Shown here: piece after piece, positions 12,941 to 29,600 of the stretch
Layout of the letters: the number at the start of each line of letters is the position of its first letter
Numbering within the stretch: the stretch's first letter is position 1
Source of the DNA: a virus
Lineage: Duplodnaviria; Caudoviricetes
IMG/VR virus record: IMGVR_UViG_3300030372_003166
Span: 3,188 to 67,187 of that record
Strand: one strand, 5' to 3'
DNA length: 64,000 nucleotides
The notes under the pieces: generated by a model
What the model was told of the DNA's origin: nothing
What the model saw: only the letters and a program-made list of their open reading frames with translations
Database searches by the model: none
Position numbers and translations under genes: made by a program

Positions 12941-13079
12941 TAACAATATAAAAGTGTACGGTGTTTGGTACAAGTAAACTGTAAAAGCATGTTAAAATCA
13001 GATCAAATAAGATATTGGAAGCGTTATAAAAACTATTTGTTAAAATGGATAAAACGCATAGACAGACATATAGATAAAC

Positions 13080-14363
13080 TTAAACGGTAACGTTATAGTT
13101 AAGTATACCTTGTAAACCATTTTGTCTGCTATATATAAAAGCTTGTGCTTTCTTTATATTACCAATAAACCCTTTACTATCGTGCCAATAATCAGTTGCT
13201 GACATAGAAGATAAATTTCTTACAGTTATACCATTTAATTCTTCTATAGCTTGCAACTTGGTAGCTTTGTTGGTGTGATAATGACCTCTATGCACTTCTA
13301 CATAAACAGTATCACTCCACAAGTTTTTAAATCTTTGTGCTATAATACCTGGCAAATCATTTGTTTTAGGACCATCACCATGATCTGATATAATAAGGTT
13401 GTTACCATAAGGCAATGCTTTCATTAAACATTCATTATTATCTACTTTAACGTTTTTATTATTTTCATAGTAAAGCTGTAATGTGTCTCCTAGATGCATA
13501 ACAGATTCTCTATCGTGATTACCTGGTATTACCATAACGTGCACATCTGCAACTTCAGACAATATATCAATAGCTTTTATCATTAGTTTGCGTGCATGTC
13601 TATACATGTCTATATGATAATCTGAATTAAATTGAGGAGTACCTCTTGTTGTGGATGGAACTGGCCAATCTTTATCAGAATTTAATAAATCGTGCCCTAC
13701 GATAAAAAGTATCTTATCTATGTAGTACCCCTGGGCTCTATATAATAAGTGATCTATGGCGCCCAAAAGACGTTTTTCAGCTATTTCTAAACTATATTCG
13801 TCGCCTTTTATGCCTATTTTACCTAAATGTAAATCAAATGCTGATATTTCTAATAAATGTAAATCATTTCTATCATCAGGCCTTTCTCTTTTAATTTTAG
13901 AAACCTTTGGCGATATATTGCGTAAGTCTTCTATAAGTTCTTCTTTTATCTTTTTTAAATTTAATTGAGGTCTTATTTTTTTTAGCCAAGCCTTAGTTCT
14001 ATACATAGTTACAGTTACTGGGTTTCTGTCGTTATCAAAACCTGTAACTTCATAAGTTCCTATATCGTACTTATCTACATCCCACATGTCTAAGTCTACT
14101 TCACATGCTGAAAGTAAATCTTCTAATGATTTGACTCTTGTACAATTTTCAGCTGTTAGTACGGCATCATTTTTAGCTTCCTGAAAATTTATAACCTCTT
14201 TTTCTTTAGGCTCTACATCAGGATTTCTTTCTCTTAATCTTCGTGCAACTGTTCTAATTTGCTCGTAATTGGTGCCAAATTTTTTGGCTGTGTCTGCGTA
14301 TTTGCTACGCATTAAGTGAGGATTTTGTAATAAATACTCCCTAATTTGATCGTTTAAAGACAT
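13080..14363 (-). CDS. calcineurin-like metallophosphoesterase with N-terminal HTH-like segment
   Basis: DLHLGK, GHDLLN, PGNHD, HGD and GHYH motifs; ATG at 14363 (MSLND) preferred. Confidence 0.9.
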   Translation of the reverse strand: MSLNDQIREYLLQNPHLMRSKYADTAKKFGTNYEQIRTVARRLRERNPDVEPKEKEVINFQEAKNDAVLTAENCTRVKSLEDLLSACEVDLDMWDVDKYDIGTYEVTGFDNDRNPVTVTMYRTKAWLKKIRPQLNLKKIKEELIEDLRNISPKVSKIKRERPDDRNDLHLLEISAFDLHLGKIGIKGDEYSLEIAEKRLLGAIDHLLYRAQGYYIDKILFIVGHDLLNSDKDWPVPSTTRGTPQFNSDYHIDMYRHARKLMIKAIDILSEVADVHVMVIPGNHDRESVMHLGDTLQLYYENNKNVKVDNNECLMKALPYGNNLIISDHGDGPKTNDLPGIIAQRFKNLWSDTVYVEVHRGHYHTNKATKLQAIEELNGITVRNLSSMSATDYWHDSKGFIGNIKKAQAFIYSRQNGLQGILNYNVTV

Positions 14364-14373
14364 TGTTATTTTT

Positions 14374-14625
14374 TTAATTATCATCAACACCATAGCCGTG
14401 TTGACTTATTAGTGTTAAATTTACGGGAACAAGCTTTTTCTTTGAACGACTCCCAATTAATTTATTAACTGCTTTATTAACAATGCTTTTGCTAGTAAAT
14501 ATAGCGCCTTTATTATATCCTTTTACTATATAGTTGTCCAATACATATTCTTTATTTTTTTGGTCTTTAAATGTCCATTTAGACAGCCAAATAGGCACAC
14601 AAAATGTATCTGTTCTACTACTCAT
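14374..14625 (-). CDS. hypothetical basic protein
   Basis: 83-aa ORF in the packed minus-strand run. Confidence 0.7.
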   Translation of the reverse strand: MSSRTDTFCVPIWLSKWTFKDQKNKEYVLDNYIVKGYNKGAIFTSKSIVNKAVNKLIGSRSKKKLVPVNLTLISQHGYGVDDN

Positions 14626-15223
14626 TAGTAATACTATGTGTAACGTGTATATTATCTCCTGATGAAGCTATGTATAAAGTAATATCTTTATTCACCTTAT
14701 TAAATAAAGAGTTTACAACGTGTGATAAGTCAACGGCTACCATAGCTGGTATGTTACCTGCAAATAAACAGGTAGATGAGCCTCCAGCAGTAGCCGTTAT
14801 AACTCCAGAAGTAACAGTAAAAGAAATATTGTCTTGACTACCAGAACTCCAATGTATACTAACACTTCTAGGTTGAGTGCTAGACGTGTTTTGTATTAAT
14901 ATGTTATTTAGCGTAGAACCCTGACTTAAAAAACATAAATTTTGCGCTGTATTTGCGGTTGAAACAATAACGCTATTTACACCGCTAGTGCTTTGTACAG
15001 GGCTTGCGCCTGTAACAGAAGGTGTTGTTGCAACAGTTCTTTGTGAAACCTCGTTTCTGTTTGCAGAATCTGCTCTATATGTGTTTTTTTCTACTTCTCT
15101 TTTTTGTTGCTCACTTAAACCTACAGGGGCCTGTTCTATAACAGCTCTATTGTCTTTTCTAGTAACATATTTTGGTCTAGTTTGTGGTGCTTTTGCTCCG
15201 TATTTATCTTTTATTAAAGGCAT
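14618..15223 (-). CDS. putative virion protein
   Basis: 201 aa; disordered N-half and Ser/Thr/Val-rich beta C-domain. Confidence 0.65.
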   Translation of the reverse strand: MPLIKDKYGAKAPQTRPKYVTRKDNRAVIEQAPVGLSEQQKREVEKNTYRADSANRNEVSQRTVATTPSVTGASPVQSTSGVNSVIVSTANTAQNLCFLSQGSTLNNILIQNTSSTQPRSVSIHWSSGSQDNISFTVTSGVITATAGGSSTCLFAGNIPAMVAVDLSHVVNSLFNKVNKDITLYIASSGDNIHVTHSITNE

Positions 15224-15239
15224 AATTTTTTATTTAAAG

Positions 15240-16460
15240 TTAACTTAAATCCCACTCCCATAAACAAGTTATATAATATGTAGTATCTGAAATAGAACTA
15301 TCACTTTCAACTGCTAATTGAACTGTATCGCCAGCGTCTATTATATTGTCGCCAGTTACTCCTGTTGTAAAATCATATGTTGTCATAGTTTGACCAGTAC
15401 AACCCGCGCCAGCTTTTGTGCCAACCACTGAAGGTGCTGCTCCTGTGTTAGAGCCAGTAGCTTGCGTTTCTAACGTCCATGTTAAAGTATTGCTACTTAT
15501 ATCGCTAGTTGCTCTAAGAAATACTTTTAATAGCTTGCCAGCAAAAGGGGCTAACATAGGTAAGTTTTTATTAGTTGAATTTTCTGACTCAGCATCGGCT
15601 TCCTGCAATCCTACATAGTGTTTGTCAGCATCAAGAGCATCTTTAAACATATAATATGTTAATTGTTTCTGAGCTGAGTAATGAGCTGTATCAGAATCTA
15701 AATAAGCACTAGCTATAGCTGTTCCTCTCCATTCTCCAGAAGTTATGATACCAACACCAGTTATGTTAGGTTGATTCGCTACTTGTATACGCCCAAGAAC
15801 GTCAAGCACTGCAGTTGTTGATGGCGCAACACCTATATTAAGCGATCCTGCTATTGTTGTTACGCTAGTTTCTCCGCTTCCTATTGTAACATCAACCTCA
15901 TCATCTGTATTAGTATCTCCATCTATTAAAATACCTTGTGTTAAAACGCCGTCATAGGCAGCGACATTAAGAGTTAACTTACCTGCTTCTTGGCCATCAG
16001 TCATGTCAGCTGCTTCAGCTAAAACACTTGCGTAATTTATTACTTCAGGCGTACCAGCATCATTATCTCCATAAAAACTTATTAAACCTAAATTTTCTCC
16101 ATCATCAACATTAGCTGCATCTTTTACTAATCTAATTTCTGCCGACTTATCTGTATCAGTATGCGAAGATGTAATTTTTAGTAATGGCTTGTCTGATGCA
16201 GTAGAATTTATATTAATATCATCTGAAGTTATTGTGGAAGACTTGCCCGAAGCAGTAGCTAAAGAAAAAGTTCCATCTACATCCACGCGCATATTAGCGT
16301 TAGCACCTGAAGCATCAATAGTGCTTATAGTCACGCCACCCTCAGGATCTGGACTTATTTGAGTGTAGTCATCAGAATCTGGCGGTTCTGCAGTTTGTAA
16401 AAAAATATTATTACGAAATCTAGATACAAACTCAAATATATGTTGACCGATCCACTTCAA
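15240..16460 (-). CDS. tail fibre/spike-like protein
   Basis: 406 aa, Thr/Ser/Asp/Gly-rich beta-type composition, ITGVGIITSGEWRGTAI fibre-type motif. Confidence 0.6.
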   Translation of the reverse strand: MKWIGQHIFEFVSRFRNNIFLQTAEPPDSDDYTQISPDPEGGVTISTIDASGANANMRVDVDGTFSLATASGKSSTITSDDININSTASDKPLLKITSSHTDTDKSAEIRLVKDAANVDDGENLGLISFYGDNDAGTPEVINYASVLAEAADMTDGQEAGKLTLNVAAYDGVLTQGILIDGDTNTDDEVDVTIGSGETSVTTIAGSLNIGVAPSTTAVLDVLGRIQVANQPNITGVGIITSGEWRGTAIASAYLDSDTAHYSAQKQLTYYMFKDALDADKHYVGLQEADAESENSTNKNLPMLAPFAGKLLKVFLRATSDISSNTLTWTLETQATGSNTGAAPSVVGTKAGAGCTGQTMTTYDFTTGVTGDNIIDAGDTVQLAVESDSSISDTTYYITCLWEWDLS

Positions 16461-16461
16461 T

Positions 16462-16917
16462 TTATATCACTTTATATTTTGTTTTACCATCTTCTTTATA
16501 AGCTTTTAAACACCTATTTCTATTTAACCCTGGAGAAACATAACTAACATGCACCCAAGCTGGATTTTCATTAGAGCCAAATTCCCATATCATTTGATCA
16601 AAATCTAAATTTTCTTTTATCCACTCATACATATCTGCGTTTGACATATTACCATAAGTGTCATCTATATCTATTGCTTGGCCGTTACAATGTTGTGATT
16701 TGCTAGAACCGCCTATAGCTTTGTTTAATTCTGGACACCTAAAAAAACTATTAATTTTTATTGGCCTGCCAACATGTTCTCTTAATGGCTCAAAAACTTT
16801 TTCAGCTGTTAGCTTCATGTTTTTTAATTCTTTTGCGTTAGGATTATTGTCTATCCCTCTTCTAATTGCTGTATTACTATATGCTCCTTCTTTGTAGCTA
16901 ATATGTTTGCTTATCAT
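16462..16917 (-). CDS. peptidase M15A-family endolysin
   Basis: INSFFRCPELNKAIGGSSKSQHCNGQAIDI and WVHVSY zinc-binding motifs. Confidence 0.9.
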   Translation of the reverse strand: MISKHISYKEGAYSNTAIRRGIDNNPNAKELKNMKLTAEKVFEPLREHVGRPIKINSFFRCPELNKAIGGSSKSQHCNGQAIDIDDTYGNMSNADMYEWIKENLDFDQMIWEFGSNENPAWVHVSYVSPGLNRNRCLKAYKEDGKTKYKVI

Positions 16918-16934
16918 TTTTTCTTTTTTAAAAG

Positions 16935-16965
16935 AATAGCCAGAAGTGATGTGCTCCTGGCTATT
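16935..16965 (-). terminator. terminator-like hairpin
   Basis: AATAGCCAG/CTGGCTATT inverted repeat followed by CTTTT on the minus strand. Confidence 0.55.
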
Positions 16966-16990
16966 ATTAAATTTAATTTTTATTTATATT

Positions 16991-17419
16991 CTAATCGTCT
17001 GAAGCTATTCCAGTGTCAGGACCATCACATAATAAGTATTGAACTTTTTGCGCTGCTGTTGTCGCTGCTAAATCTAAATTAGCAGAACCATTCCCCGCAC
17101 CATCTATATGAACTGGAGAAAACATGCATTCACCTGGCTTTAAATCCGCTATAACGTCACCATCTGGCTTTACAGCTACTGGATAGTCAGTGTCTACATT
17201 TTTAACAAATGTAAATATCATATCTTTATTGTGACTTGCTAAATTTATTGTAGTGTCTGAAGTGCCGTTAGTTAATATTTCTCCTGTAGATATTAAAGCT
17301 GAATCTACTGTTGTAGAGTCTGTAGTAAAACTAGGAGAAAATGAACATACTAAGTTTCCGTCTGCATCAGTTAAATCCATAGAGCCTGATACTGTTACTG
17401 ATAATGATTGTGTTGCCAT
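16991..17419 (-). CDS. small beta-rich virion protein (paralogue family A)
   Basis: FTFVKNVD motif shared with 17431-17820 and 51577-52041. Confidence 0.65.
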   Translation of the reverse strand: MATQSLSVTVSGSMDLTDADGNLVCSFSPSFTTDSTTVDSALISTGEILTNGTSDTTINLASHNKDMIFTFVKNVDTDYPVAVKPDGDVIADLKPGECMFSPVHIDGAGNGSANLDLAATTAAQKVQYLLCDGPDTGIASDD

Positions 17420-17430
17420 ATTGTTTTATT

Positions 17431-17820
17431 TTAAGCGTTTGCGTCTATTTCTATTGCGGCATATTCTATGGTTACAGTTGCTGTATCTGCTAACGCAACT
17501 GTAGTTCCTGTGCCTCTTATTACTGTCATTAAAAAATGCCCTGGCTCTAGTATACCGATTAAATCTGCAGCCGAAGAAGCTCCGTCATATATTTTTACAA
17601 AATTTGTGTCATCTAAATTTTTAACATATATAAACCTTCCAGATCCTGGCGCAGCCATTACTGTAGAGTCACCATCATGAGCAACGTCTATTCTTCCAGT
17701 TGCTATTTGATCAACACCTGTAATATTCAAGGTATATGACCCTGACTGTGATTGAGAATAACCACTAGCAGAGGTTGCTGTCATACTTAGGTTACAGTTT
17801 AATGTATAATTTTTTGCCAT
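17431..17820 (-). CDS. small beta-rich virion protein (paralogue family A)
   Basis: FIYVKNLDDTNFV...ILEPG motif. Confidence 0.65.
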   Translation of the reverse strand: MAKNYTLNCNLSMTATSASGYSQSQSGSYTLNITGVDQIATGRIDVAHDGDSTVMAAPGSGRFIYVKNLDDTNFVKIYDGASSAADLIGILEPGHFLMTVIRGTGTTVALADTATVTIEYAAIEIDANA

Positions 17821-17832
17821 TGTTTTTTATTT

Positions 17833-18111
17833 TTACAAATTTATGAATTTTTTTTTATATTTTTTTGATTCTTTTAACTTTTTAAGCTCTCCGCACTTTT
17901 CATATTGCTCTAATGTACAAAAATAATCAATTATTTTATCAATTACGTCATTATTTATGCCTTTTTTCGGATTAAAGGGTAACGCGCATCCATTATATTC
18001 TAATAATTCATTAAATGATAACTTATTGGTTATTATCATGTAAGAGTTAAGCATTGACTCATGTACTATCTCATCAGGATCTTCAAGAAGTTTTTTCATA
18101 GATTCTGTCAT
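17833..18111 (-). CDS. hypothetical protein with UVR-like C-terminal helix pair
   Basis: IDYFCTLEQYEKCGELKKL. Confidence 0.6.
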   Translation of the reverse strand: MTESMKKLLEDPDEIVHESMLNSYMIITNKLSFNELLEYNGCALPFNPKKGINNDVIDKIIDYFCTLEQYEKCGELKKLKESKKYKKKFINL

Positions 18112-18494
18112 TTTTTTACTTTTTCTAGTGATCTACCGCCAAAATAAGCACCAATCACAGTTATTAATACTAATTGTAATAGGTCTGTCCATTTGTCTTC
18201 TACATTAAAACTTATAGCCCCAGCGTCAATAAATATCATTAATACTGTAGATGTAACTAAAAACACCAACACTAATGGGCGTATATTTTTAGATAGCCAT
18301 GAATCTGAGTTCATATCCATCTTCCACCTCTCTGTTATTTGTTTTTGCATTTCTGCTTCATAACCCATAACTAAATCTTTTATTTTTCTTTCTGCCTCTA
18401 ATTTTTCTTCCTTTGACGTGTGTAAATTATCTATAACACCTCCCACGCCTTTAACTAGTTCTGCTGCTCCTCCTGAAAATAAATTTCCTAACAT
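18108..18494 (-). CDS. 3TM holin (GTA_holin_3TM-like)
   Basis: IDNLHTSKEEKL, RWKMDMNSDSWLSKNIRP, hydrophobic segments, GAYFGGRSLEK. Confidence 0.85.
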   Translation of the reverse strand: MLGNLFSGGAAELVKGVGGVIDNLHTSKEEKLEAERKIKDLVMGYEAEMQKQITERWKMDMNSDSWLSKNIRPLVLVFLVTSTVLMIFIDAGAISFNVEDKWTDLLQLVLITVIGAYFGGRSLEKVKK

Positions 18495-18505
18495 AATTTA
18501 TAATT

Positions 18506-18736
18506 TTAGTATCCGCCTCCGCTAGACCCATTTCCTCCACTTGAAGATCTTGCATTTGGCAAATTGTTAATATTTGTATTGGTGGCTTGACTATGTGTTG
18601 CGCCCCCCATGTACCCGACCTGTCCTTGATATGTATGCGTGTGATAACCAGTTAAGCCTCTAGAAGCGGCCCAAGCTAAAGCTTCTTGTATAGTGCTATA
18701 TAATGGCTGTCCACCAATTGTAGTTAATAAAGGCAT
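18506..18736 (-). CDS. hypothetical phage protein
   Basis: 76 aa with GYHTH...GYMGGATH motif. Confidence 0.7.
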   Translation of the reverse strand: MPLLTTIGGQPLYSTIQEALAWAASRGLTGYHTHTYQGQVGYMGGATHSQATNTNINNLPNARSSSGGNGSSGGGY

Positions 18737-18737
18737 G

Positions 18738-21656
18738 TTAGTATTGTTTGAATTTTTTTTCTATTGTACCATCATCATAAATATATAATAAAGGCCTGTT
18801 ATTTGTTTGTTTAGTTTTTCTACCTAATAAATCAGTTATCATTATTAATTTTTTTGGCTCTGTTTGTCTTGTTAATAAAGGACCTCCGTATGTGCCTTCG
18901 CAATAATCATATGTTAACTGACATATTGAATCCCATGCATTTTCACAACAATAATCGTCCACTGATATAACCCAAGCGTAACACTCATCATTAAGGAAAA
19001 AAGGGTTGCCAGAACCGTTTATACACCAATCTGCCGCATATAAACAACCTAAAGAATCGTGTGCTATTACGTTAGCCAACGGGTTATAATTAAACGCATT
19101 CGGATCCCTACATCCTGCAATTGCCTCAATACACGAACCGTTTTCAGTGTTAGCCAACGAATCATAGTTAAGAGCAGTGCTGTCCATACAACCATACACA
19201 TAAGCAATACAACTAAAATCTTCTGTGTTTGCTTGGGGATTATAATTAAGCATACTAGGGTCAGTGCAGCCGTAAATAAAAGGCACGCAAGTATTATTAT
19301 CAACATTGGCTAGAGGATTATAGTTAAACATTGTGCTATCTGTGCAACCATATATTGGAAGTATACAGCTAAAATCATCAGTATTACAAGTATCGCAATA
19401 GTTTAAAGCTATTGGATTTGTACAGCCATATATAACTGGTATACACGAACCGTTATCAGTATTTACTAAAGGATCGTAATTAAAAGATGCGGTATCCATA
19501 CATCCATACACAAAAGGTATGCACGAGCCGTTGTCAGTATTTGCCGACGCATTGTAATTAAACATCGTAGGGTCTGTACAGCCTAAAACAACTTCTACAC
19601 ATGATCCGTCATTCGTGTTTGCTGCAGAATTGTAGTTAAATGCTACTGGATCTGTACAGCCATAAACAACACCTATACAACTACCATCGTCTGTATTAGC
19701 TGCAGGATTATAGTTATATGCTATAGGAGACGTACATCCTAAAACAACAGCTATACACGGACCAGATGTATTTGCTTGTGCATTATAATTAAAAGCTAAA
19801 GGCTGCATACAACCTACTATAACTGGCACACAGCCTCCGTTGTCTACATTTGCAGTAGAATCATAGTTAAATGCTGTTGAGTCAATACAACCAAATACAG
19901 CGACTATACTACAGCTGCCATCATCTACATCCGCAACAAATCCCTGTGTGTAGTATTCTAAATAACCTACATTAGTGCATCCTGGGCTGTAATAACACAC
20001 ATCGCTTGTGTTTGCTAAAGAGTTATAGTTATATGCCGTAGCATCCATACAGCCTATTACCACTGGAATACATTCATTACCACAGTAAGGTTGTGCCTCG
20101 TATATATCTAAAGCGTTTTTATAATTTCTTAATTTGTTTTCGTTTGGTCCAGGCCAAGGGTTGTTTCCTTCATACATTACCACACCAAAACTATTTTCTA
20201 ATTTAAATGAGTTTTGTATTGTTTGTATGTCTAATTGCTGTGTGTTTTGTTGTGGTGTAGGTATTTCAAAATAATAAAAATAAACCTCATCATATGAATT
20301 TAGTTCTAAAGCAAACGTGTCAGAATATACGCCATTTTGATTTATTCTAAATTGCCACAACGAATCTCCTTGCTCTACCCCTAACCAACAAGAACCCCAA
20401 GAATCCCCACCATCATCATACAGTATTAAATCATAAACACAAGGAGAGGTCAATAACATTCTGTCAGCGTTAGGATCATAATTAAATGCAGAGGCATCAG
20501 TACATCCATAAATAGCTAATGTCATACAGCTGCCATCATCTACAGTAGCAAGTGAATCATACTCTATATAAGCAGGGGTAGTACAACCATATATGGTAGT
20601 GTCATTATTACACGCATCAGAAACATAAGGTAAAGAAGATGCTGTATATCCAAAATTTGGTGGGCTTAATAAAAACATGGTGTCTTGACAATCTAGATTT
20701 GTTACTAAACAACTTCCAACTACAGAACCTCCACCTATACCATCACCATAAGTATCGTTTATTGTAAACATTATAGTGTCGCCAACAGGAACACAAACCT
20801 GAGTATGCACTGTTTGTCCTGTTTGCGTATAATCATATGTGCCAGAGTTGACAGACGCAAGCGTGTCTGTAGCAGAATATATCAACCAAGATGTTTCAGC
20901 TGGCCAATTATCTAACTTTATAGCTACATCTATTAATGACTGACCAGGATTGCAAATGATTTCTTGAATGCAGGAACCGTCATCTACGTTAGCCCAGGGA
21001 TTATAATTTGTAGCGCTAGGATCAGAGCATCCATAATAATATATACAAGTGCCGTTATCATGTGTAGCTGTTGAATCATAGTTAGATGATACAGTATCGG
21101 TACAGCCATATAAAACTGAATATGGGTCACTAATCATTATATCATCTATAGATATATCACTAGTATAACTAGTCCCAGTAATACCTTTAAATTTTATTTT
21201 AAATGGTGTAGTTGACAATATTGGGTAATATGCAAGCTGCCATTGATTTCCTTGATTGCCAGATATAGTGTCTAGCGCATTGTATCCAGAACTATCTAAT
21301 ACACCTATCTCTAAGTCTCCCATAGCAGCTCCATACATATGATACCAGAAAGACAGTACTTTTCCAGGCGTTTGTGATACATCAAACATTGGTGTATAAA
21401 ATGTAAAGACTTTACCTCCATAATTTTGCCCAGATGATTCTACATAAAAATAATTACCAAAACCAGTTGTGTGATCTCCTGTAGGCCCAGTATTCATAGA
21501 ACTTGTTGATCCTTGATGTAACAACCAATCACCAAAATCGTTAGTGTCTTGTTGTAATGCTACACCATTTTCAAAGTCATGTGTCCACGGAAAAGTGTTT
21601 ACTATTTGACTAAAACTAAATATAGGTAATAATATTAAAATTAAAATATTTTTCAT
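18738..21656 (-). CDS. secreted-type MAM-domain protein with about 17 Cys-bounded GCxD repeats and a T9SS-CTD-like C-terminus
   Basis: Signal-like MKNILILILLPIFSFSQ; MAM motifs (TGPTGDHT, LSFWYHMYG, GNQGNQW, DISIDDI); repeats GC[TM]DxxAxNYxxxANxDxGSC; ends MITDLLGRK...LYIYDDGTIEKKF. Confidence 0.8.
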   Translation of the reverse strand: MKNILILILLPIFSFSQIVNTFPWTHDFENGVALQQDTNDFGDWLLHQGSTSSMNTGPTGDHTTGFGNYFYVESSGQNYGGKVFTFYTPMFDVSQTPGKVLSFWYHMYGAAMGDLEIGVLDSSGYNALDTISGNQGNQWQLAYYPILSTTPFKIKFKGITGTSYTSDISIDDIMISDPYSVLYGCTDTVSSNYDSTATHDNGTCIYYYGCSDPSATNYNPWANVDDGSCIQEIICNPGQSLIDVAIKLDNWPAETSWLIYSATDTLASVNSGTYDYTQTGQTVHTQVCVPVGDTIMFTINDTYGDGIGGGSVVGSCLVTNLDCQDTMFLLSPPNFGYTASSLPYVSDACNNDTTIYGCTTPAYIEYDSLATVDDGSCMTLAIYGCTDASAFNYDPNADRMLLTSPCVYDLILYDDGGDSWGSCWLGVEQGDSLWQFRINQNGVYSDTFALELNSYDEVYFYYFEIPTPQQNTQQLDIQTIQNSFKLENSFGVVMYEGNNPWPGPNENKLRNYKNALDIYEAQPYCGNECIPVVIGCMDATAYNYNSLANTSDVCYYSPGCTNVGYLEYYTQGFVADVDDGSCSIVAVFGCIDSTAFNYDSTANVDNGGCVPVIVGCMQPLAFNYNAQANTSGPCIAVVLGCTSPIAYNYNPAANTDDGSCIGVVYGCTDPVAFNYNSAANTNDGSCVEVVLGCTDPTMFNYNASANTDNGSCIPFVYGCMDTASFNYDPLVNTDNGSCIPVIYGCTNPIALNYCDTCNTDDFSCILPIYGCTDSTMFNYNPLANVDNNTCVPFIYGCTDPSMLNYNPQANTEDFSCIAYVYGCMDSTALNYDSLANTENGSCIEAIAGCRDPNAFNYNPLANVIAHDSLGCLYAADWCINGSGNPFFLNDECYAWVISVDDYCCENAWDSICQLTYDYCEGTYGGPLLTRQTEPKKLIMITDLLGRKTKQTNNRPLLYIYDDGTIEKKFKQY

Positions 21657-21901
21657 TCTTTGTTTTTTACTTTTTCAAACGCACTAATACCAAAACATCC
21701 TAATGTTACCATAACAAATGAATTATATATAGTGTCATTAATTTCTAATTCACCGCCTCCTACATATCCCATGTATATGACAGCAGTACCTAAATCTATA
21801 ATAGCAAATAACACCATAATAGCAAAAGATATAAAACCAACTACATTCTTTTCATTAATATCATTTTTATTTTTAAATAATTTCCACATGTTAAAAATCA
21901 C
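21653..21901 (-). CDS. small two-TM membrane protein (holin-like)
   Basis: Two hydrophobic segments with charged termini. Confidence 0.65.
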   Translation of the reverse strand: MIFNMWKLFKNKNDINEKNVVGFISFAIMVLFAIIDLGTAVIYMGYVGGGELEINDTIYNSFVMVTLGCFGISAFEKVKNKE

Positions 21902-22253
21902 TCATTAATAAATTGTCTATCTCTTCTTGTACTTCTTCTTTTTTTGCTACCATTTTAAAACTTAAATCTGCTTGAAATCTTAAAACTTCTTCTTCGTCTC
22001 TAAATATTATAATAGTGGGTATAACTGCTATTTTATATTTTGTTGCTATTTCAGGCTCTTTTGCTATATCTATAATGCTTTTAGTTTTACATTCTTGCAG
22101 GTCCATGAACCAAGAAACACCATTTGTTTTATTCCATTCAGCGTTAAAGTGCATTGCTGTTATTTGACCAAAAGATACATTAGAAAAAAAAACAAGAAAC
22201 ATAATAATAAAATACATAACAAACAATTTCCAGTCAACCTTTGCTTCTTCCAT
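21891..22253 (-). CDS. exported thioredoxin-fold protein lacking CxxC
   Basis: Hydrophobic leader; HFNAEWNKTN in place of FxAxWCxxC; YKIAVIPTIIIF cis-Pro strand. Confidence 0.7.
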   Translation of the reverse strand: MEEAKVDWKLFVMYFIIMFLVFFSNVSFGQITAMHFNAEWNKTNGVSWFMDLQECKTKSIIDIAKEPEIATKYKIAVIPTIIIFRDEEEVLRFQADLSFKMVAKKEEVQEEIDNLLMSDF

Positions 22254-22543
22254 TATCTATTATATAATTTATCTTCTATTTTTTCCATAGATTTTTTTAT
22301 TTCTTCTACATCTTTCTGTGTAGTCATAATAGTATTACGTATCATTTGATCTTTCATATCAAACTCCATTCTTGTAACATCAGGAGCTGGTGGCTCAGGC
22401 AGTTGTTTTGCCTCTTCAATATCTGCTTGTAACATAAACCACATGCTGATAACTGTAGCCATTGCGGCTCCTATTCCTATAAGCGTTTTAATACTTACTT
22501 GAAAGCCTGTATCCTCATTTAATTCTTTTGCCATTACTCCCAA
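22253..22543 (-). CDS. membrane-anchored coiled-coil protein
   Basis: One TM segment, Pro-rich linker, then coiled-coil. Confidence 0.7.
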   Translation of the reverse strand: MGVMAKELNEDTGFQVSIKTLIGIGAAMATVISMWFMLQADIEEAKQLPEPPAPDVTRMEFDMKDQMIRNTIMTTQKDVEEIKKSMEKIEDKLYNR

Positions 22544-22767
22544 AACATTTTAATAACCAGTCCAATTGTAACCGCGTATATAGCCCACAAAGCTTTACTC
22601 ATAATCTTGCGATAAGAGGTGTTTTTATTTACTCTTGCTGTTACTCCGTAATCTGGGTTTAACAACTTTTCTGTTAACATATCTAGTTTAGCATCCATTT
22701 TATCTATTTTTTCTTCCATTGAGTCCATTCTATGCTTTACTAATGATATGTCGTCTTTCATTGTCAT
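22534..22767 (-). CDS. coiled-coil protein with C-terminal TM anchor
   Basis: Heptad N-region and hydrophobic C-terminus ALWAIYAVTIGLVIKMFW. Confidence 0.7.
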   Translation of the reverse strand: MTMKDDISLVKHRMDSMEEKIDKMDAKLDMLTEKLLNPDYGVTARVNKNTSYRKIMSKALWAIYAVTIGLVIKMFWE

Positions 22768-22919
22768 TACAATTCAAAACCTAAATTTAATACTATAAAT
22801 CTGTGTTCTACACCTGGATTACAATACAATTCTAATATTGTAAACCTGCCCAGCCTGATAGATATATCGTATATACTATCTTTTTTATTGCCTTGTCTCC
22901 AACTGTTTATCCAATTCAT
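22767..22919 (-). CDS. small hypothetical protein (50 aa, below track cutoff)
   Basis: MNWINSWRQGNKKDSIYDISIRLGRF...; TAATG and ATGA overlaps on both sides. Confidence 0.65.
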   Translation of the reverse strand: MNWINSWRQGNKKDSIYDISIRLGRFTILELYCNPGVEHRFIVLNLGFEL

Positions 22920-23029
22920 GCCTTACAACATTTATCTCCTAAGTCGCATACATCAGGTTTTGCACACCAATTAAAACATATTAATCCAAATGTTATAGCC
23001 TGAACCCATTTACAAATTTTATTTTTCAT
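22916..23029 (-). CDS. Cys-rich peptide (37 aa, below track cutoff)
   Basis: MKNKICKWVQAITFGLICFNWCAKPDVCDLGDKCCKA; fills the gap, ATGA overlap with the next gene. Confidence 0.55.
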   Translation of the reverse strand: MKNKICKWVQAITFGLICFNWCAKPDVCDLGDKCCKA

Positions 23030-23033
23030 ACTA

Positions 23034-23402
23034 TTATCTTTTTCCGCCATGATACTCAACTGCATGACCTTCTTTTATTAATAATTCATTTACACTCTCT
23101 AGCGTCATTTTTTCTTTTCCATCTACTACATCTATATGGATTTCTCCAAGACACCTTCCAAATTTGCCAACACCATGTGATGTTAACTGTATTCTGTTAG
23201 AACCCTCTAGCAATTGTTTAACCCTGTCTTTTGCAGCCAAACCTTTTGCTTTTTCTTCTAGGTCTCTAGTGCGACACTCAGGGGTGTTTACCCCCGAGAA
23301 TCTCACTCTTTTTTTTACACTTATATCAAAACCTAAATCTATGTTTGCGTCTATAGTGTCTCCGTCAACAACTTTTAACAATTCAATATTGTAAGTGTAC
23401 AT
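23034..23402 (-). CDS. thermonuclease (SNase-like) family nuclease
   Basis: VVDGDTID, RVRFSGVNTPE, GKFGRCLGEI; no signal peptide. Confidence 0.9.
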   Translation of the reverse strand: MYTYNIELLKVVDGDTIDANIDLGFDISVKKRVRFSGVNTPECRTRDLEEKAKGLAAKDRVKQLLEGSNRIQLTSHGVGKFGRCLGEIHIDVVDGKEKMTLESVNELLIKEGHAVEYHGGKR

Positions 23403-23410
23403 ACTAACGG

Positions 23411-23821
23411 TTATAGTTTATAAGCTATTCCAATTACAAACTTCCCTTCTTTTTTGCCGTTTTCATCTTCTTTCATCGGCATAGAATAACTAGGTTCAAT
23501 ATATAATTTTTCCCAAACATTATAAGAGTATCCAGCACCTACATTCATGTTTTCTGACATCTCTTCAGTTGGCATTTGTAAAGATACGTATATATTTTCA
23601 AAATAATATCTTCCAAACACATCATAATTTTCACCATTTTTTATTACACCCGCCATCATTTTGTCGTTTATTTGATAGCCAGCGCCCATATTATCTGTTA
23701 TACTATTTACCGTCCACTCTTCTCCATCCTCTGGCATATTTACAGAAGACATAATTGAAAATTGTGCTGATACTAATAAACATACACAAGTTGATAAAGC
23801 TGTTAAAAATATTTTTTTCAT
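23411..23821 (-). CDS. small outer-membrane beta-barrel-like protein
   Basis: Signal peptide ending ...VSAQ; alternating aromatic strands GAGYQIN, VFGRYYF, GAGYSYNV; terminal FVIGIAYKL. Confidence 0.7.
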   Translation of the reverse strand: MKKIFLTALSTCVCLLVSAQFSIMSSVNMPEDGEEWTVNSITDNMGAGYQINDKMMAGVIKNGENYDVFGRYYFENIYVSLQMPTEEMSENMNVGAGYSYNVWEKLYIEPSYSMPMKEDENGKKEGKFVIGIAYKL

Positions 23822-23843
23822 TTTTTATTTATTTAAATTAATA

Positions 23844-24974
23844 CTAAAATATGACGTAATTTACGCCTAGTTTAAAATCATACCACTCTCTGTTCCAGTA
23901 CTTGTTGTATTTCCCCTCAACAAAATATCCAAGACTTTTGTTTACTTTAATTCCATATATTAAACCGCCTGAATAATCGTACCATTGTTCTCCGTCGTTA
24001 AAGTTGTGATATGAAAACTCACTACCATTATCATAATGATAAGGGAGTATGTTGCCCCAAGCATGCAGCCATCTATTTTTTTTATATTTATAATAGTCAA
24101 ATCCAATTATAACAGAATGCTGTATTTGTTTGGATAATTGATTTCTTTTTTTAATAGTATAGTCAGCTATGACTTGTGGTATTACTACTTCTTTCCAAAC
24201 CTCTGGACTGTTTGCAACTACATTCCCACCTGGATCCTTATACTCACTATTTGCAACATCAATATTATAACCTTCTTGAATCGCTAAGTAAGTGTAATGC
24301 AAATTTCCATTATCCAGAATCCATTCTTCTAGTGGGTCGTAGCCGTAGGGTTCTGCTAGTCTATGAGCAAGTCCTACGCTTATAGCTAGCTCTTTATTTC
24401 TTTTTATTCTATATCTTTCTGACAGTTCAAAATATTCTACATCTGCAAAACCGTCTTTTACATATTCAACTTTTGCTGCAAAATGATCTACACACAAAGG
24501 CCCATCGCAATCATCATCAGAACTATATCTAATAAAATGATGCTGATCTATATAGTCTACCCCTTGTTGTCTTGCATAATCTATCTCAAATAAATACTCA
24601 AATCCCTGTACCTTACCTACCGTTGCTGCATCTGTGTAATTAGATTCGGTACCATCATAAAATGTGTTTGCTTTGTTTTCGTATCCGAACCTAGCTATTT
24701 TTCTGATACCTACAGTTAACGAATAATCATAAGGGGTTGAAATAATATTTTCTTGCAACTGACCAGATGTAACAGAAAATGTTTTAAAATCAGAAACAGA
24801 GGTTCCTCCATTAACCGCAGCATACACTGTAGAAAATTTTAAATGTTTTTTTAGTGCTTTTTCAAAATCATACTCTTTGATAAGGGTAACATAATCTATT
24901 TGCCCACAGCACTCCTTTGGTGCTGCGCAAGACATCAAAAATAAAAACAGTATAAATAGCATTGTGTTTCTCAT
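23844..24974 (-). CDS. exported, probably outer-membrane beta-barrel protein with lipoprotein-like leader
   Basis: MRNTMLFILFLFLMSC leader; amphipathic strands; C-terminal FKLGVNYVIF with terminal Phe. Confidence 0.65.
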   Translation of the reverse strand: MRNTMLFILFLFLMSCAAPKECCGQIDYVTLIKEYDFEKALKKHLKFSTVYAAVNGGTSVSDFKTFSVTSGQLQENIISTPYDYSLTVGIRKIARFGYENKANTFYDGTESNYTDAATVGKVQGFEYLFEIDYARQQGVDYIDQHHFIRYSSDDDCDGPLCVDHFAAKVEYVKDGFADVEYFELSERYRIKRNKELAISVGLAHRLAEPYGYDPLEEWILDNGNLHYTYLAIQEGYNIDVANSEYKDPGGNVVANSPEVWKEVVIPQVIADYTIKKRNQLSKQIQHSVIIGFDYYKYKKNRWLHAWGNILPYHYDNGSEFSYHNFNDGEQWYDYSGGLIYGIKVNKSLGYFVEGKYNKYWNREWYDFKLGVNYVIF

Positions 24975-25702
24975 GATATACTAAATTTTTCTTTTAAATA
25001 TGCGTGCATACGTGTTAATTGATTGGCGGTAAATATATCAGAATAAAACAAAAGCTCTAATATAGTCCCGTCTAAAAACCTATCACTATCATTTCTAGAA
25101 CCAATATTTTGAAAATCAAATCCTTTATTGTTTTCTGCATTTGTTGACGATGAGTTTTGTACAACTGTAGTGCCGTCAACAAACCATTGAAAAACACCAT
25201 CTGCGTCTCTTATAAATGAAACTATCATAGGGTCTGTAGTGAATACATCACTATCTGATCTTAACACCGTTGTTACGTTTGAAGGATTGTTTCCCTTAAA
25301 TCTAATTGAGTTAGCTCTTAAAATTTCTATAAATTCATTATTACTATCTGACAATATCGCTTCGTTTGTTAATTCGTCTAATCTTGTTACAACAAATAAT
25401 GAAAACGCTCCACCTTCTAGAATTGCAATTGAGGAATCTAAATCTAAAAACTGATTTCCAATTCCTGGCATTGATTGATCAAAATTTAATCCACCCGAGC
25501 TAACGTTAGGGCGATTAGCCTCAGTTGTTTGTGTAGCGTCATTTCCATTACCAGAGGAGTCTAACCAAGCGCTTCCATCTGCGCTTAAACCAACATTATT
25601 CTGCAACCATAATGCAAGTTTTGTTCCTATTATTTCATCTTTAGGAGTCCAATCAGTTGGAGTTTCTAGTAGCTCATTTGTTATTCCTAATCCTAATGAC
25701 AT
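24971..25702 (-). CDS. LamG/ConA-like lectin-fold virion protein
   Basis: LALWL...WLDSSGNGNDATQ...FDQ...FSLFVV...IGSR...LDGTILELLFY pattern. Confidence 0.8.
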   Translation of the reverse strand: MSLGLGITNELLETPTDWTPKDEIIGTKLALWLQNNVGLSADGSAWLDSSGNGNDATQTTEANRPNVSSGGLNFDQSMPGIGNQFLDLDSSIAILEGGAFSLFVVTRLDELTNEAILSDSNNEFIEILRANSIRFKGNNPSNVTTVLRSDSDVFTTDPMIVSFIRDADGVFQWFVDGTTVVQNSSSTNAENNKGFDFQNIGSRNDSDRFLDGTILELLFYSDIFTANQLTRMHAYLKEKFSIS

Positions 25703-25861
25703 TTACCAGTTTTTTGGATTTAAATAATATAAAAAGTTTTTCTTCTTAGGTTTAAATTTTTCATAAAGCACATTGTCTTTTACAATATACTTTGGTTTTT
25801 CTTCTATAGATTTTTTGTAAACCCTTGGATTGCGAGTTGCAAGTTTTTGTATAAATCCCAT
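25703..25861 (-). CDS. small basic protein (52 aa, below track cutoff)
   Basis: MGFIQKLATRNPRV...LNPKNW; fills the gap exactly. Confidence 0.55.
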   Translation of the reverse strand: MGFIQKLATRNPRVYKKSIEEKPKYIVKDNVLYEKFKPKKKNFLYYLNPKNW

Positions 25862-25862
25862 T

Positions 25863-26213
25863 TTAGATTCCTGTTTTAGGAACCAAGTATAATATTACTC
25901 CTCCGTCACTATCTGCAGTTTGTAATTTAGCAGTGTCCCACCTTCCATATATAGTTGTTCCTGCTGTAAAAACAGCTGTATTGTCTAATTGACAACCATT
26001 TGTTCCTTCCTGTACAGTGCCCGAATTATGTGCTGCATTTGCTGTATTAAAATATCTTCTGTTTCCAGCGCTAGTATCAGAGGCCGTTAAGGTGTTAAGA
26101 GTATTGTTAGCTATAAAATGTATAGCCCCTATAACCATTCCGTCTGGTGCAGTAAATAAATTTGTAGTGTCTACATAAACAGACCCGTATTTTCCTAAAT
26201 CAAAATTATCCAT
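25863..26213 (-). CDS. small virion protein (paralogue family B)
   Basis: GKYGSVY...FTAGTTIYGRWD...VILYL. Confidence 0.7.
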   Translation of the reverse strand: MDNFDLGKYGSVYVDTTNLFTAPDGMVIGAIHFIANNTLNTLTASDTSAGNRRYFNTANAAHNSGTVQEGTNGCQLDNTAVFTAGTTIYGRWDTAKLQTADSDGGVILYLVPKTGI

Positions 26214-26232
26214 AGTTTTTTATTTTAAATTA

Positions 26233-26607
26233 TTAATATCCTACTGGCGCTAAATAACATATACAAGAGCCGCTATTTAACTCAACATGATCCCACTTTC
26301 CATATATAGTAACTCCTTTTGGAAATTCATGTGTAGTTAATATTCTTTCTGCATCTGTTGATGTGCTTTCATTTGTTACTGCTCCAAACTCCGTTCCTAT
26401 ATCTATTTGATCTGTTTCTGTTGATATAGAATTTATTAAGTTGTCTAAAGTTTGTAACTCTTGAAAAGTCACTACGTCTAGCATTGTAATAGCAATTACA
26501 AATCTGTTTGCAGTAGCGCCGTCTAAATCTAATTTTGCCCCATCTCCTGTTAAATAAACAGAACCAAATTGACCAAAAGATGCTTTAAACAAATCATTTA
26601 TGTTCAT
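26233..26607 (-). CDS. small virion protein (paralogue family B)
   Basis: GQFGSVY...FPKGVTIYGKWD...CICYL; TATATTTG upstream at 26622-26629. Confidence 0.7.
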   Translation of the reverse strand: MNINDLFKASFGQFGSVYLTGDGAKLDLDGATANRFVIAITMLDVVTFQELQTLDNLINSISTETDQIDIGTEFGAVTNESTSTDAERILTTHEFPKGVTIYGKWDHVELNSGSCICYLAPVGY

Positions 26608-26640
26608 ACCTTAAATTTTTACAAATATAGTGAAATTTAA

Positions 26641-29600
26641 TTACCTAATTAACGAACTAGTTTCCTTTTTGTTAGAATTGTCGTCACCCAATATGTTCAT
26701 CAAATCTTTTCTAGCTTCTGCAAATGGAGATATTTCATACTTAAAAGTCTTTCCAGCCTGTGATTCTCCACGTTTCGCATACGGACCTGTTCTTTTAACT
26801 CTGTCCTCACTTACAGACTCTTGTATAGCTTTTGCTGCATTTTTCATTGTACCGTATGAAGAAGGGACTGCTGTGTAATTTACAAATCTTCTTATGTCAG
26901 TTGTAATAAATACATCGTGTGACAATTTTTTAAGCCTTCTAATTGCAAATGTATCAGGTTCGTCATCGTCTTCCATCATAGCAATTAAAGACAGCAAGGT
27001 TACTCCTATACCAATACCAGAAACATGATTTCGCATTTCTTGTTTTCTTTTTTCGCTAGAATTATTATATATTTCTTTTATTTTATCTTTTGTTAATTCA
27101 CCTGCAAAATACTTCCTAAACAAATCTGTTACAAACTCAGAACTTGCCCTATAGCTACCTATGTTTACTTCTCCAAACCTATCTATATCTTCGGCCTTAA
27201 ACCTATCATTAATTAAAGTTATAAACCATTTTTTAAATTGCAGCAATGCTCTACCATATGAATACATAGAAAGTAAACTAGCGTCTAACGCAGTATAACC
27301 CTCTCCGTGCAAAGTTGTTATTTTATTGTTTATATACATAACTCTGTCCTCACTTATAACTCCTGTGTTATACTCTTTGTCAGTAAGCATACCTAAGAAA
27401 GAAGCCCCTTGTATGTATGCTTCAGATTTATCCATAAACAAATAAGAAAATCTTTCTAACCTTCCTAAAGGTCCTGACTTTTCAGACAAATGTATAAATT
27501 CATCAAAACTGTATTCTACTATTCTGTGTTTCTTTAATATATCTCTAGAGCGTAACATATCTTTCCAATACCTAGCCTCACCTTTAATAAACTGTTTACC
27601 ACCACGCTTACGTAGTTCCTGATATTTACCTGCTAGAATATTACCTAAACCTACACTCATGTTAAAACCTAGAAGACGTAAAGATGTAAGCCTAACAAAA
27701 GAGTCTATAACCTTATCTCCTGTTTTTCCCAGTGCACTAGTTTGCTGCTTCTTTTCTAAAAATCCTTCCTTCCACCATTCAGTAAGATATTTTACAGCGT
27801 TCTTATTGTCTAAGTCTTTGTTAAATCCAATTATAGAATCAGTTAATATTGCAACTTTATCCATTCCTGTAAAACGATCGTCTCTTTCGCTTATTTTGCC
27901 ATCTTTCATTTGATACCTACCCTCACCATGTCTAAATATATGACCTCTTGTAAATTCTAGCAATGTTGTATTTATATCATACGATATGTTTTGAGCTTTT
28001 ACACCCTTTCTTCTTTCGTATTCTTTTATTAATTCAGCATCTATGTTGCTAGTTTTATCGTAGCCCACCATTCTTTTTAACAATGATCCGTTATTTACAA
28101 GTGCATCATATTCTGTATCTGAAAGCAAAATAGGAGTTTTATCCTCATGCATTCCTTGCTGCTTAAAACTCTTAGCTTTTCTCCTAAGTTTGTCTAGTTC
28201 ATATATTTCTTTACCTGACTTTAATCTAAGCTTGCCTGTTCTACCTTTGTAAACATCATACTTCCATTCATAATAAGTTTTTATTACTTTATTGCCGTCT
28301 AAGTCTGTTCCACGAACTCTTACCTTATAATAATCATTAGAGTCAATAGCGGCATTATAAAGACCAAACAACCCGCTTCTTGCCATGTTTTCTATTGTAC
28401 CCATCTGCAATCCAGGGATTACTGTTTTGCCTTCTTCTGATCCTAAAAGTATTTCTGCAACAGCTTTGTATCTAATGTAATATTCTTTTTCTTCCTTAGT
28501 TAACTCTACACCATTAGCCACTATTTCTTCAGGCGTATACAGTCTAACGTTTCCATTTTCTACTGTAGCTAAATTACCATATATATATTGGTAACGAGCA
28601 TTTGTGTCAAACTCTTTTCTTATTCTTTCTAATACAGAAAGGTCTTTCATTTTAGACCTAACCAGCGCTCTATTTTTTTCTTCAATTAAGTTTTTGTGTT
28701 CTTTAAAACTTTTTATATACTTTCTATAGTCTTTTTGCGCTTCATTAATTAAGTATTGTATTTCTGGTCTTTTAGATGTCATGTTGTTAGAACCAAGCCA
28801 TGCTTGAAAATTAGTTAGATCATCTTGCGCCACACCATCAACACCAGGTATCTTATAATTATAGCCCTGATCTTTTCCTGCTTCTTTTAAAAACTGAGAT
28901 TGTTTTCTAAACGCTCTTTGTCCTATTTCTTTTTCTAACATATGCGCCACACCCTTTGTAGCCGAGTTGTCCATTTTTCTAAACCTTCTAGCTTCTGTAT
29001 ACAAGCCCTCCATAGTGTATTTACTCAAAGGTTTTTTGGCTAGACTAGACTCAAACTCTTTTGCTAGCTTAAGGTGATTTTTGTATTTACTATAATTTTC
29101 TGTAAGTATTTTAAAAGTATTAGACTTTTTTTCTATCTTGTCTATGTCTATACCTTTGTCTGCAGCCCAATTACGAAAAGACAAAGTCTCAACTCCACCT
29201 GCTAAATAGTCACCATTAAAAGAAGTGTCAGGAGTTATTACTTTTTTTGGTTTTTTAATATCGCCTATAATTATATTATTATTATCTTTAGATGCTTTGT
29301 CTCTTCTTTGGCTAGCGGTAAATTTGTCTTTACCTGCCTTACGATCTTCTACATCTTTTATAGCGTCTAATAACTCTCCTGGTACAGGGCTTCTATCTAA
29401 ATCTATTTTGTAGTCTTTTTCATTATGCTTTATAACTTTAAGCATGCCGTCGTTTATTTTTTGCACATATTCATTATCAAAAAACGGAACAAATGAAGTA
29501 GCCTTGCCTGCTCCTCCCGTATACCCAAACAAATTAAACATGTATTCTATTTCAAACAATAAGTCTTTTTCTGTAGAATTTAATTTAGAAAATTCGTTTT

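Follow-up and report, generated by a model that had tools for sequence, protein, structure and literature searches.

A three-protein envelope unit beside the lysis genes of marine phages as a candidate for the outer-membrane step of lysis

Here we report that a late-gene cassette in a marine viral record (IMGVR_UViG_3300030372_003166) contains a unit of three genes, the trio, that persists across distantly related viral loci and commonly lies against the endolysin and holin genes. The DNA analysed, hereafter the window, is a stretch of 64 kb from this 67,187-bp record. The trio consists of a predicted outer-membrane beta-barrel (omp376), a small bitopic protein anchored in the inner membrane (cc96) and an exported protein of thioredoxin fold (Trx120). 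We suggest, at somewhat less than an even chance, that the trio performs or controls the outer-membrane step of lysis, a spanin-like role filled by non-spanin parts. The wider proposal, that the three proteins are an undescribed three-layer outer-membrane lysis machine of Bacteroidota phages, carried by a very large ocean group and perhaps also handling secreted proteins that bear a cut-down type IX secretion system (T9SS) tail, is offered tentatively and is on balance doubtful. The three genes occupy these positions in the window (aa, amino acids; ORF, open reading frame):

23844..24974, minus strand: omp376, predicted exported outer-membrane beta-barrel, core trio member 1
22253..22534 (ORF 22253-22543, ATG at 22534), minus strand: cc96, 93-aa bitopic protein, core trio member 2
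21891..22253, minus strand: Trx120, Sec-exported thioredoxin-fold protein, core trio member 3

Two sets of loci were compared. The first, from the window's clade, comprised 80 loci analysed of 443 barrel relatives in viral contigs; the second, more distant, comprised 80 loci of at least 590 further contigs, seeded with barrel relatives at 25-40% identity from a library-wide HMMER search and mapped with profiles. The barrel is present in 160/160 loci by construction, cc96 accompanies it in 75/80 and 73/80 and Trx120 in 70/80 and 69/80, and the trio is retained down to about 35% barrel identity. The other genes of the cassette (listed below) behave differently: a MAM-like gene is found in 68/80 loci of the window's clade and in 3/80 of the distant set, those three being large upstream proteins, and SNase, cc77, orf50, cys49, omp136 and 2TM82 each occur in 14-30 of the 80 loci of the window's clade, at varying positions. 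Since the trio alone persists in both sets, it is the constant unit, and the coordinated ten-gene system envisaged in a preliminary description of this DNA shrinks to three genes among neighbours that are shuffled or clade-specific. Across loci the barrel is about as conserved as the holin (67-86% versus 69-87% identity), and the sequences of its family, which come from marine metagenomes and Tara, form 3640 clusters at 90% identity, all of them unnamed.

No match to the barrel, Trx120 or cc96 was returned by tblastn against 50,697 cultured-phage records, and a megablast of window positions 15000-27000 against cultured phages was equally empty. Scanning 185,579 species genomes with the Trx profile recovered one 7-kb misbinned phage contig with the same cassette in a metagenome-assembled genome (MAG) and a 34-residue match in a Liberibacter MAG. 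The trio is therefore phage-only; the scan found no prophage copy of the Trx, and the carrier state once suggested for the cassette gains no support from it. The most distant barrel relative (P0237) found nothing when used as a query in viral contigs, and a scan with the C-terminus of the giant protein encoded ahead of the cassette returned 9 close relatives only, too few to gauge how universal the trio is. Our literature searches found no published description of it.

The linkage to lysis genes is tightest in the distant clades, where a median of 28 bp separates the nearest trio gene from endolysin or holin; the distance does not exceed 100 bp in 24/42 loci or 1 kb in 39/42 (a holin was recognized in 43/80 and an M15 endolysin in 35/80 loci of this set). 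The five-gene block L158:43-2608 reads barrel-cc96-Trx-M15 endolysin-holin, and the ends of successive genes overlap or leave no more than 24 bp between them; the blocks of L134 and L111 resemble it, and the endolysin directly follows Trx120 in many distant loci (e.g., L158 and L111). In the window's clade the median distance from trio to holin is 3149 bp, because a MAM-like gene of 2-3 kb stands between Trx and the holin; this gene looks like a later insertion into an older trio-lysis arrangement. Within the window the M15 endolysin lies 1.2 kb beyond the holin. A lipobox scan of window positions 13000-27000 for a small o-spanin-type lipoprotein gene returned only the sporadic cys49 and the ambiguous leader of the barrel, in agreement with the earlier remark that no classical spanin pair is evident here. 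The idea of a non-canonical, multi-component outer-membrane lysis apparatus is thus still the best fit to the context, given the 28-bp median and the lack of an o-spanin gene in that scan, with the trio and not ten genes as its components.

The two smaller members of the trio are coupled. They are always adjacent, in the order cc96-Trx120, with median gaps of -1 and -4 bp in the two locus sets and a gap of at most 30 bp in 130/136 loci, and the Trx120 start codon overlaps the cc96 stop codon (translational coupling). In the cc96 protein an N-terminal transmembrane (TM) helix (about residues 17-35) is joined by a Pro-rich linker to a conserved periplasmic helix whose last residues are EKIEDKLYNR. 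Mean column identity in its alignment (A5) is 71%, searches of PDB, Pfam, NCBIfam and PHROG gave no significant family, and its nearest Atlas clusters contain viruses only. In addition to cc96 itself, L149 encodes a further cc96-like protein directly before the M15 endolysin (L149:10826-11152), diverged in sequence and 108 aa long, with TM plus coil; L151, L154, L159 and L160 have one as well.

Trx120 falls below the Pfam PF00085 cut-off as a single sequence (20.2 versus 23.5 bits), and its family profile matches PDB thioredoxins at E 7.6e-7 and 1.4e-6. The fold is homologous to that of the thioredoxin family (PF00085; 7bzk, 2vim), including the cis-Pro loop region (KIAVIPTIIIF). Unlike thioredoxins, every member carries WNxxN in place of CxxC: WN(K/S)xN, WNKTN in the window, replaces WCGPC in 41/41 aligned homologues and in the diverged members inspected, which bears out the earlier view of a redox-dead exported thioredoxin fold. 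It differs further in its Sec signal peptide, which makes it periplasmic, in its restriction to phages and in an invariant C-terminal LMSDF. The single longer form found, a 340-aa AAA-plus-Trx protein on a 1.9-kb contig, was taken as a gene-calling artefact.

Searches of Pfam, NCBIfam and PHROG with omp376 gave no match, including none to a T9SS, Lom/Ail-type or other named barrel family. Its AlphaFold2 (AF2) model, built from a 39-row alignment, is a closed beta-barrel with a helical insert (pLDDT 78.6, pTM 0.72), and exhaustive structure comparison (VIA) gave Tsx (Z 13.6), KdgM (12.9), autotransporter barrels (11.6-12.7) and OMPLA (10.5). Foldseek returned generic barrels alone (TM-score 0.2-0.36), with FadL-type chains far down the list (0.25-0.30); PorV and PorP are absent among the matches listed by either comparison. 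The model is consistent with a small outer-membrane barrel as fold class, without a specific relative. The likeness to the small 12-strand barrels (Tsx, KdgM/NanC, autotransporter beta-domains and OMPLA) is one of predicted fold, at Z 10.5-13.6 over about 170-200 aligned residues; sequence identity is 7-13% without a family-level match, and omp376 is set apart by an approximately 75-residue helical insert (208-282) and a conserved, poorly modelled loop (93-123). The protein ends in NYVIF, and the family C-terminus is ..NY[VI]IF in most members and ..NYIIR in a subgroup. A signal peptide, a predicted closed barrel and a C-terminal aromatic residue are the features of substrates of the beta-barrel assembly machinery (BAM), and omp376 has all three.

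Signal peptidase I (SPI) substrates of Bacteroidota typically expose an N-terminal Gln (the Q-rule; PMC5837995). Scored as a hydrophobic leader followed by [AGSTC]Q, such leaders are present in 125/137 Trx proteins, 127/158 large barrels, 16/19 small barrels and 59/59 MAM-like proteins, and in 0 of about 300 ORFs of neighbouring cytoplasmic or virion-type families from the same loci, which served as controls. This conservation in four families against none of the controls supports functional export as well as a Bacteroidota host, and the signal peptides noted in the preliminary description thus appear genuine; the SNase has none. The leader of omp376 is ambiguous, with a lipobox (LMSC) and an SPI site (CCG/Q). 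It belongs to a type, ..[LA]xSC[AST]xPKKCC[AGS]Q, that is interchangeable with plain SPI leaders in three unrelated exported families (barrel, Trx and MAM-like; omp376 at window 24900-24974, MAM-like proteins in L004 and L040, Trx at L082:2915-2990) and admits two readings, a lipobox with Cys at +1 or a long SPI leader with cleavage ahead of Gln.

The trio would place one protein in each layer of the envelope, omp376 in the outer membrane, Trx120 in the periplasm and cc96 in the inner membrane, and we infer that the three may join into one complex that reaches across the periplasm. Such a complex could become active when the murein has gone, through the action of holin and endolysin, and would then break or fuse the outer membrane. 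This proposal draws on the conservation of the trio, the coupling of cc96 and Trx, the proximity to lysis genes, the three-layer topology and the phage-only spread; on accessory neighbours that include a 2-TM protein and cc77, with its weak PHROG 'hemolysin' match; and on a relative described below (L170), in which the same slot holds two TM-plus-coil ORFs beside the holin.

Spanins provide the closest functional comparison. In a survey of phages of Gram-negative hosts 91/677 had no spanin (PMC6139136), and other outer-membrane routes are therefore to be expected. Two-component spanins such as lambda Rz/Rz1 (PMC6139136) likewise lie in the lysis cassette beside endolysin and holin; cc96 shares the i-spanin layout of an N-terminal TM anchor and a periplasmic coiled coil, and the trio too places proteins in both membranes. 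The differences are that there is no sequence relation, that the outer-membrane partner is a 376-aa barrel and not a small lipoprotein, that a folded periplasmic thioredoxin-like subunit is added, and that the periplasmic part of cc96 is short.

Several points weigh against a function in lysis. The role would be assigned entirely from gene position, and late non-virion genes may simply cluster near lysis genes. We know of no described lysis system that uses a beta-barrel or a thioredoxin fold, and a barrel needs assembly by BAM, seemingly a slow process for a late lysis factor. With about 55 aa in the periplasm, cc96 is short for spanning it. A small Cys-rich secreted protein with a characteristic tail lies inside the trio in 48/65 distant loci, an arrangement that fits cargo handling too. 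In L170 (IMGVR_UViG_3300025168_000110; a 54.7-kb record, 81% complete, whose giant protein is 62% identical), the barrel, cc96, Trx and the MAM-like gene are all absent. The cultured Nonlabens (Flavobacteriaceae) phage P12024L has the same holin family and an 88-aa TM-plus-coil protein directly before its endolysin, with no barrel- or Trx-sized gene annotated beside its lysis genes. Taken together, L170 and P12024L indicate that the trio is not indispensable for lysing such hosts.

At the cassette site of L170 (L170:12700-15000) a cc77-like gene and two 70-aa TM-plus-coil ORFs precede orf76 and the holin. The cassette position is thus a slot for membrane-active lysis accessories, with the trio as one solution among several. 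L170 also has a different endolysin-sized gene further on.

CheckV estimates the record as 99% complete, terminase, portal and major head protein have PHROG matches in the window, and the portal shares about 30% identity with its counterparts in crAss-like phages of Bacteroides, with Flavobacterium and Cellulophaga phage portals also matching. The source is a marine crAss-like phage of roughly 67 kb with a Bacteroidota host, the host being deduced from three observations: Q-rule leaders, a portal of crAss-like type and canonical T9SS C-terminal domains (CTDs) in MAM972 orthologues. The cassette is a layered late-gene block. Late genes are all on the minus strand, and the cassette, 11 tightly packed minus-strand genes of which the majority encode exported or membrane proteins, ends the late/structural block, with a lectin-fold gene on one side and the holin on the other. 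Adjacent genes either share 1-11 nt (as many as 32 nt at the start listed for cys49) or stand no more than 22 nt apart; the packing is thus indeed tight, and the ORFs of the dense run of about ten envelope-type genes originally noted here lie where they were placed. The remaining genes, with the boundary genes on either side, are as follows:

24971..25702, minus strand: LamG/ConA-like lectin-fold gene, upstream boundary (Laminin_G_3, 1.2e-8; phrog_10356 'virion structural protein', 7.1e-15)
23411..23821, minus strand: omp136, small exported protein, candidate minimal beta-barrel, accessory
23034..23402, minus strand: SNase122, endonuclease of staphylococcal-nuclease fold, without signal peptide, cytoplasmic accessory
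22916..23065, minus strand: cys49, Cys-rich membrane peptide of 37-49 aa, accessory
22767..22919, minus strand: orf50, small conserved Cys-containing protein (MNWINSW...LNLGFE), without signal peptide, accessory
22534..22767, minus strand: cc77, coiled-coil protein with C-terminal TM anchor, accessory
21653..21901, minus strand: 2TM82, two-TM membrane protein, possible holin-type accessory
18738..21656, minus strand: MAM972, Sec-exported 972-aa MAM/Cys-repeat protein, clade-specific cargo
18506..18736, minus strand: orf76, 50-aa conserved N-terminal domain and Gly/Ser/Asn-rich tail, directly upstream of the holin
18108..18494, minus strand: holin, downstream boundary (phrog_3427, 8.6e-31)
16462..16917, minus strand: M15-type peptidase endolysin, outside the cassette in the same lysis context (phrog_894, 7.8e-33)

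The product of the lectin-fold gene is probably part of a virion fibre, and homologues of the holin carry a holin annotation in Nonlabens and Vibrio phages. A giant protein of 3872 aa (window 26641-38259), with no PHROG match at E <= 1e-5, precedes the cassette region. In the 33-bp gap between its gene and the next lies a TATATTTG element (minus strand, 26622-26629), a Bacteroidota -7-like motif that could mark the start of a transcript running into the cassette; the count of such motifs in the window is near chance (122 versus 102 +/- 10), and scans for sigma-70 promoters, terminators and TAnnTTTG gave chance level only.

The accessory genes vary from phage to phage. SNase122 is firmly assigned (Pfam PF00565, E 4.8e-9, 37.1 bits versus a cut-off of 21; phrog_452, 1.8e-37) and occurs in 22/80 loci of the window's clade at varying positions. 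The small barrel candidate omp136 has a signal peptide ending SAQ/F and strand-like segments in its alignment (A9, read by eye); it is present in 18/80 and 2/80 loci of the two sets, sometimes elsewhere on the opposite strand. Its matches are weak (Pfam OMP_b-brl, E 0.055; NCBIfam TDE1717 barrel, E 0.0031), and of the two outer-membrane-protein-like products first proposed omp376 is therefore a predicted barrel and omp136 a candidate. Homology between the two was rejected (hhalign probability 18%, leader only). Found in 14/80 loci, often directly upstream of cc96, cys49 is the sole small lipobox-like ORF of the region, with a mature part of about 15 aa.

The cc77 protein, present in 17/80 loci and kept in the trio-less L170, matches phrog_1193 'hemolysin' weakly (E 0.0049, residues 2-72), and a relationship with cc96 was rejected (hhalign probability 5%). 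2TM82 occurs in 19/80 and 30/80 loci; it shares a 16-residue C-terminal motif with the holin, and homology was again rejected (hhalign probability 2%, not significant). No family match was found for orf76, which occurs in 17/80 loci, usually just before the holin, and combines a conserved domain (..GYHTHxYQGQxGYMGG..) with a low-complexity tail ending in Tyr. The orf50 family, in 30/80 and 28/80 loci (58/160), comprises proteins of 50-60 aa reading MNWINSWxxGNKK...LNFGFE with or without a CxxC-rich middle, and its members are encoded now in the cassette, now several kb upstream of the barrel.

MAM972 has a MAM domain (nt 21129-21575, residues 28-176; Pfam PF00629, E 3e-24, 86.1 bits versus a cut-off of 26.4). 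The protein contains 50 Cys and at least 13 'GCTDxxAFNYxxxANxDxGSC' two-cysteine repeats, 11 of them at a 26-aa period, together with a helical Cys-rich domain that its orthologues conserve and a C-terminal tail of 38 aa (nt 18744-18872). Its leader is MKNILILILLPIFSFSQ/IV, and in 59/59 orthologues [AGS]Q comes after a hydrophobic leader. The Cys repeat recurs, as GCTDxxAxNYDxxA..C, in proteins of 1300-1900 aa without signal peptide encoded upstream of the barrel (39-87 Cys; L006:634-5823, L031:2394-7004, L040:3274-7752, L101:1707-5639, L138:3651-8003 and others), and is therefore common to probable virion or fibre proteins and to the secreted MAM-like protein.

The preliminary description saw MAM972 as T9SS-like cargo, a view that holds by orthology only; its own tail is not a recognizable T9SS domain. 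Searches for the sorting domain (PF18962, TIGR04183) gave no match at E <= 0.1 (NCBIfam) or at E <= 0.01 (Pfam, last 130 aa), and hhalign of the short tail against canonical tails gave a probability of 3.8%. The T9SS type A CTD is a compact Ig-like 3+4 (seven-strand) beta-sandwich (PMC11285876); the AF2 model of the last 130 aa of MAM972, weak overall (pLDDT 63.5), contains three strands (95-99, 113-118 and 123-127; pLDDT 84-88), and the seven-strand sandwich is not seen in it. Read by eye, two motifs of the canonical domain survive in the short tail, xxDxxGR and a closing K-rich hydrophobic strand. In 6/41 orthologues a Por_Secre_tail (best E 7.4e-13) occupies the exact junction at which the others have the short tail, which lies at the extreme C-terminus in 51/51 ORFs, a position held by a canonical T9SS CTD in 7. 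Precedent exists in the 'Cryophage' T9SS type A cargo (Bellas et al. 2020, PMC7468147), which is likewise phage-encoded, Sec-exported and variable and bears a T9SS CTD. MAM972 differs in its 38-aa three-strand tail, which T9SS models do not recognize, in being a MAM/Cys-repeat protein where the 'Cryophage' cargo is a glycoside hydrolase or PA14 protein, and in adjoining a conserved envelope trio. MAM972 probably reaches the surface or the medium via a cut-down T9SS-like tail or with the barrel as its dock. Different phages have different N-terminal domains in this protein (a MAM domain in 12/42), and this swapping suggests an adhesin-like or binding role.

These properties open the first alternative to a lysis function, in which the barrel serves as dock or conduit and cc96-Trx as periplasmic holder for a secreted protein with a tail (MAM972 in this phage and smaller Cys-rich proteins in others), which is displayed or released for adhesion or binding, the proximity to lysis genes being incidental. 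In the distant clades 48/65 loci encode, within the trio or adjacent to it, a small secreted Cys-rich protein of 148-310 aa whose tail is similar, and counting all Sec-signal tail proteins within 3.5 kb the association also extends to most loci of the window's clade. The tail motifs (..YNLxGQxI..GxYIExGKxK or ITDLLGR..LFYIYDDGT..KK) always form the C-terminal end, as a sorting signal would, and the swap for a canonical CTD, the exchange of N-terminal domains and the 'Cryophage' precedent all accord with cargo. Set against this, in 17/65 distant loci the trio abuts endolysin and holin and no gene for a tail-bearing protein is close by, and conservation of the trio far exceeds that of any cargo. 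Among the listed fold matches the barrel, too, shows no specific PorV/FadL-type likeness, the top ones being Tsx, KdgM/NanC and autotransporter barrels, and no trio member matches a T9SS family in Pfam or NCBIfam. We consider cargo handling and surface display unlikely, with perhaps something over one chance in five.

The barrel and its partners might instead occupy or alter a host receptor, blocking further phages or saving progeny from the debris of lysed cells. Phage-encoded outer-membrane proteins are widespread, and a preprint (10.64898/2026.10.24.761521) cites lambda Lom as blocking LamB; like Lom and the outer-membrane proteins of huge phages treated there, omp376 is a phage gene product with a signal peptide and a predicted barrel for the host outer membrane. 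The functional-looking signals of these envelope proteins and the dispensability of the trio in at least one relative would also suit receptor masking or superinfection exclusion. Genes of that kind are, however, usually variable and tied to host range, unlike a barrel as conserved as the holin, and this explanation accounts neither for the obligate inner-membrane and periplasmic partners nor for the tight coupling to endolysin and holin. Compared with Lom and the huge-phage proteins, omp376 belongs to another size class, has no detectable homology to Lom/Ail-type or other named barrels, and comes from a 67-kb and not a huge phage. We regard receptor masking as improbable.

A role in lysis timing is more improbable still, at about one chance in ten: cc96, with Trx120 and the barrel, would sense an envelope signal and delay or trigger the holin rather than break the outer membrane. 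The size and topology of cc96 are similar to those of the T4 periplasmic antiholin RI. As a small bitopic protein with a periplasmic helical domain, encoded inside a lysis cassette and having a second paralogue directly before the endolysin in the five loci named above, it could fit such a function. There is, on the other side, no sequence relation between cc96 and known antiholins, the holin apparently has no periplasmic domain to bind (positive-inside rule, read from sequence), and a conserved 376-aa barrel is an elaborate sensor. That these are ordinary virion components merely looking exported, as the position at the end of the structural operon beside a lectin-fold fibre-like gene and the Cys repeat shared with large upstream proteins lacking signal peptides might suggest, is very unlikely indeed, given cleavable Sec leaders with the host-specific +1 Gln in four families and in none of the neighbouring virion-type families, and a transmembrane barrel and TM-anchored protein that are unexpected in a tailed-phage virion.

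To our knowledge, how Bacteroidota phages break the outer membrane is not known. The trio recurs on over a thousand viral contigs (443 plus at least 590 stretches with barrel relatives), and its place beside endolysin and holin makes it a specific candidate, open to experiment, for a new outer-membrane step of lysis. Should its function lie elsewhere, phages would have in it an abundant system for rebuilding the host's envelope at a late stage of infection, one in which a thioredoxin fold is retained for a task other than redox chemistry. The secreted proteins with tails and exchangeable heads suggest in addition that these phages place proteins of their own on or outside the host cell, which, if true, would bear on adhesion and on phage-host ecology in the sea.

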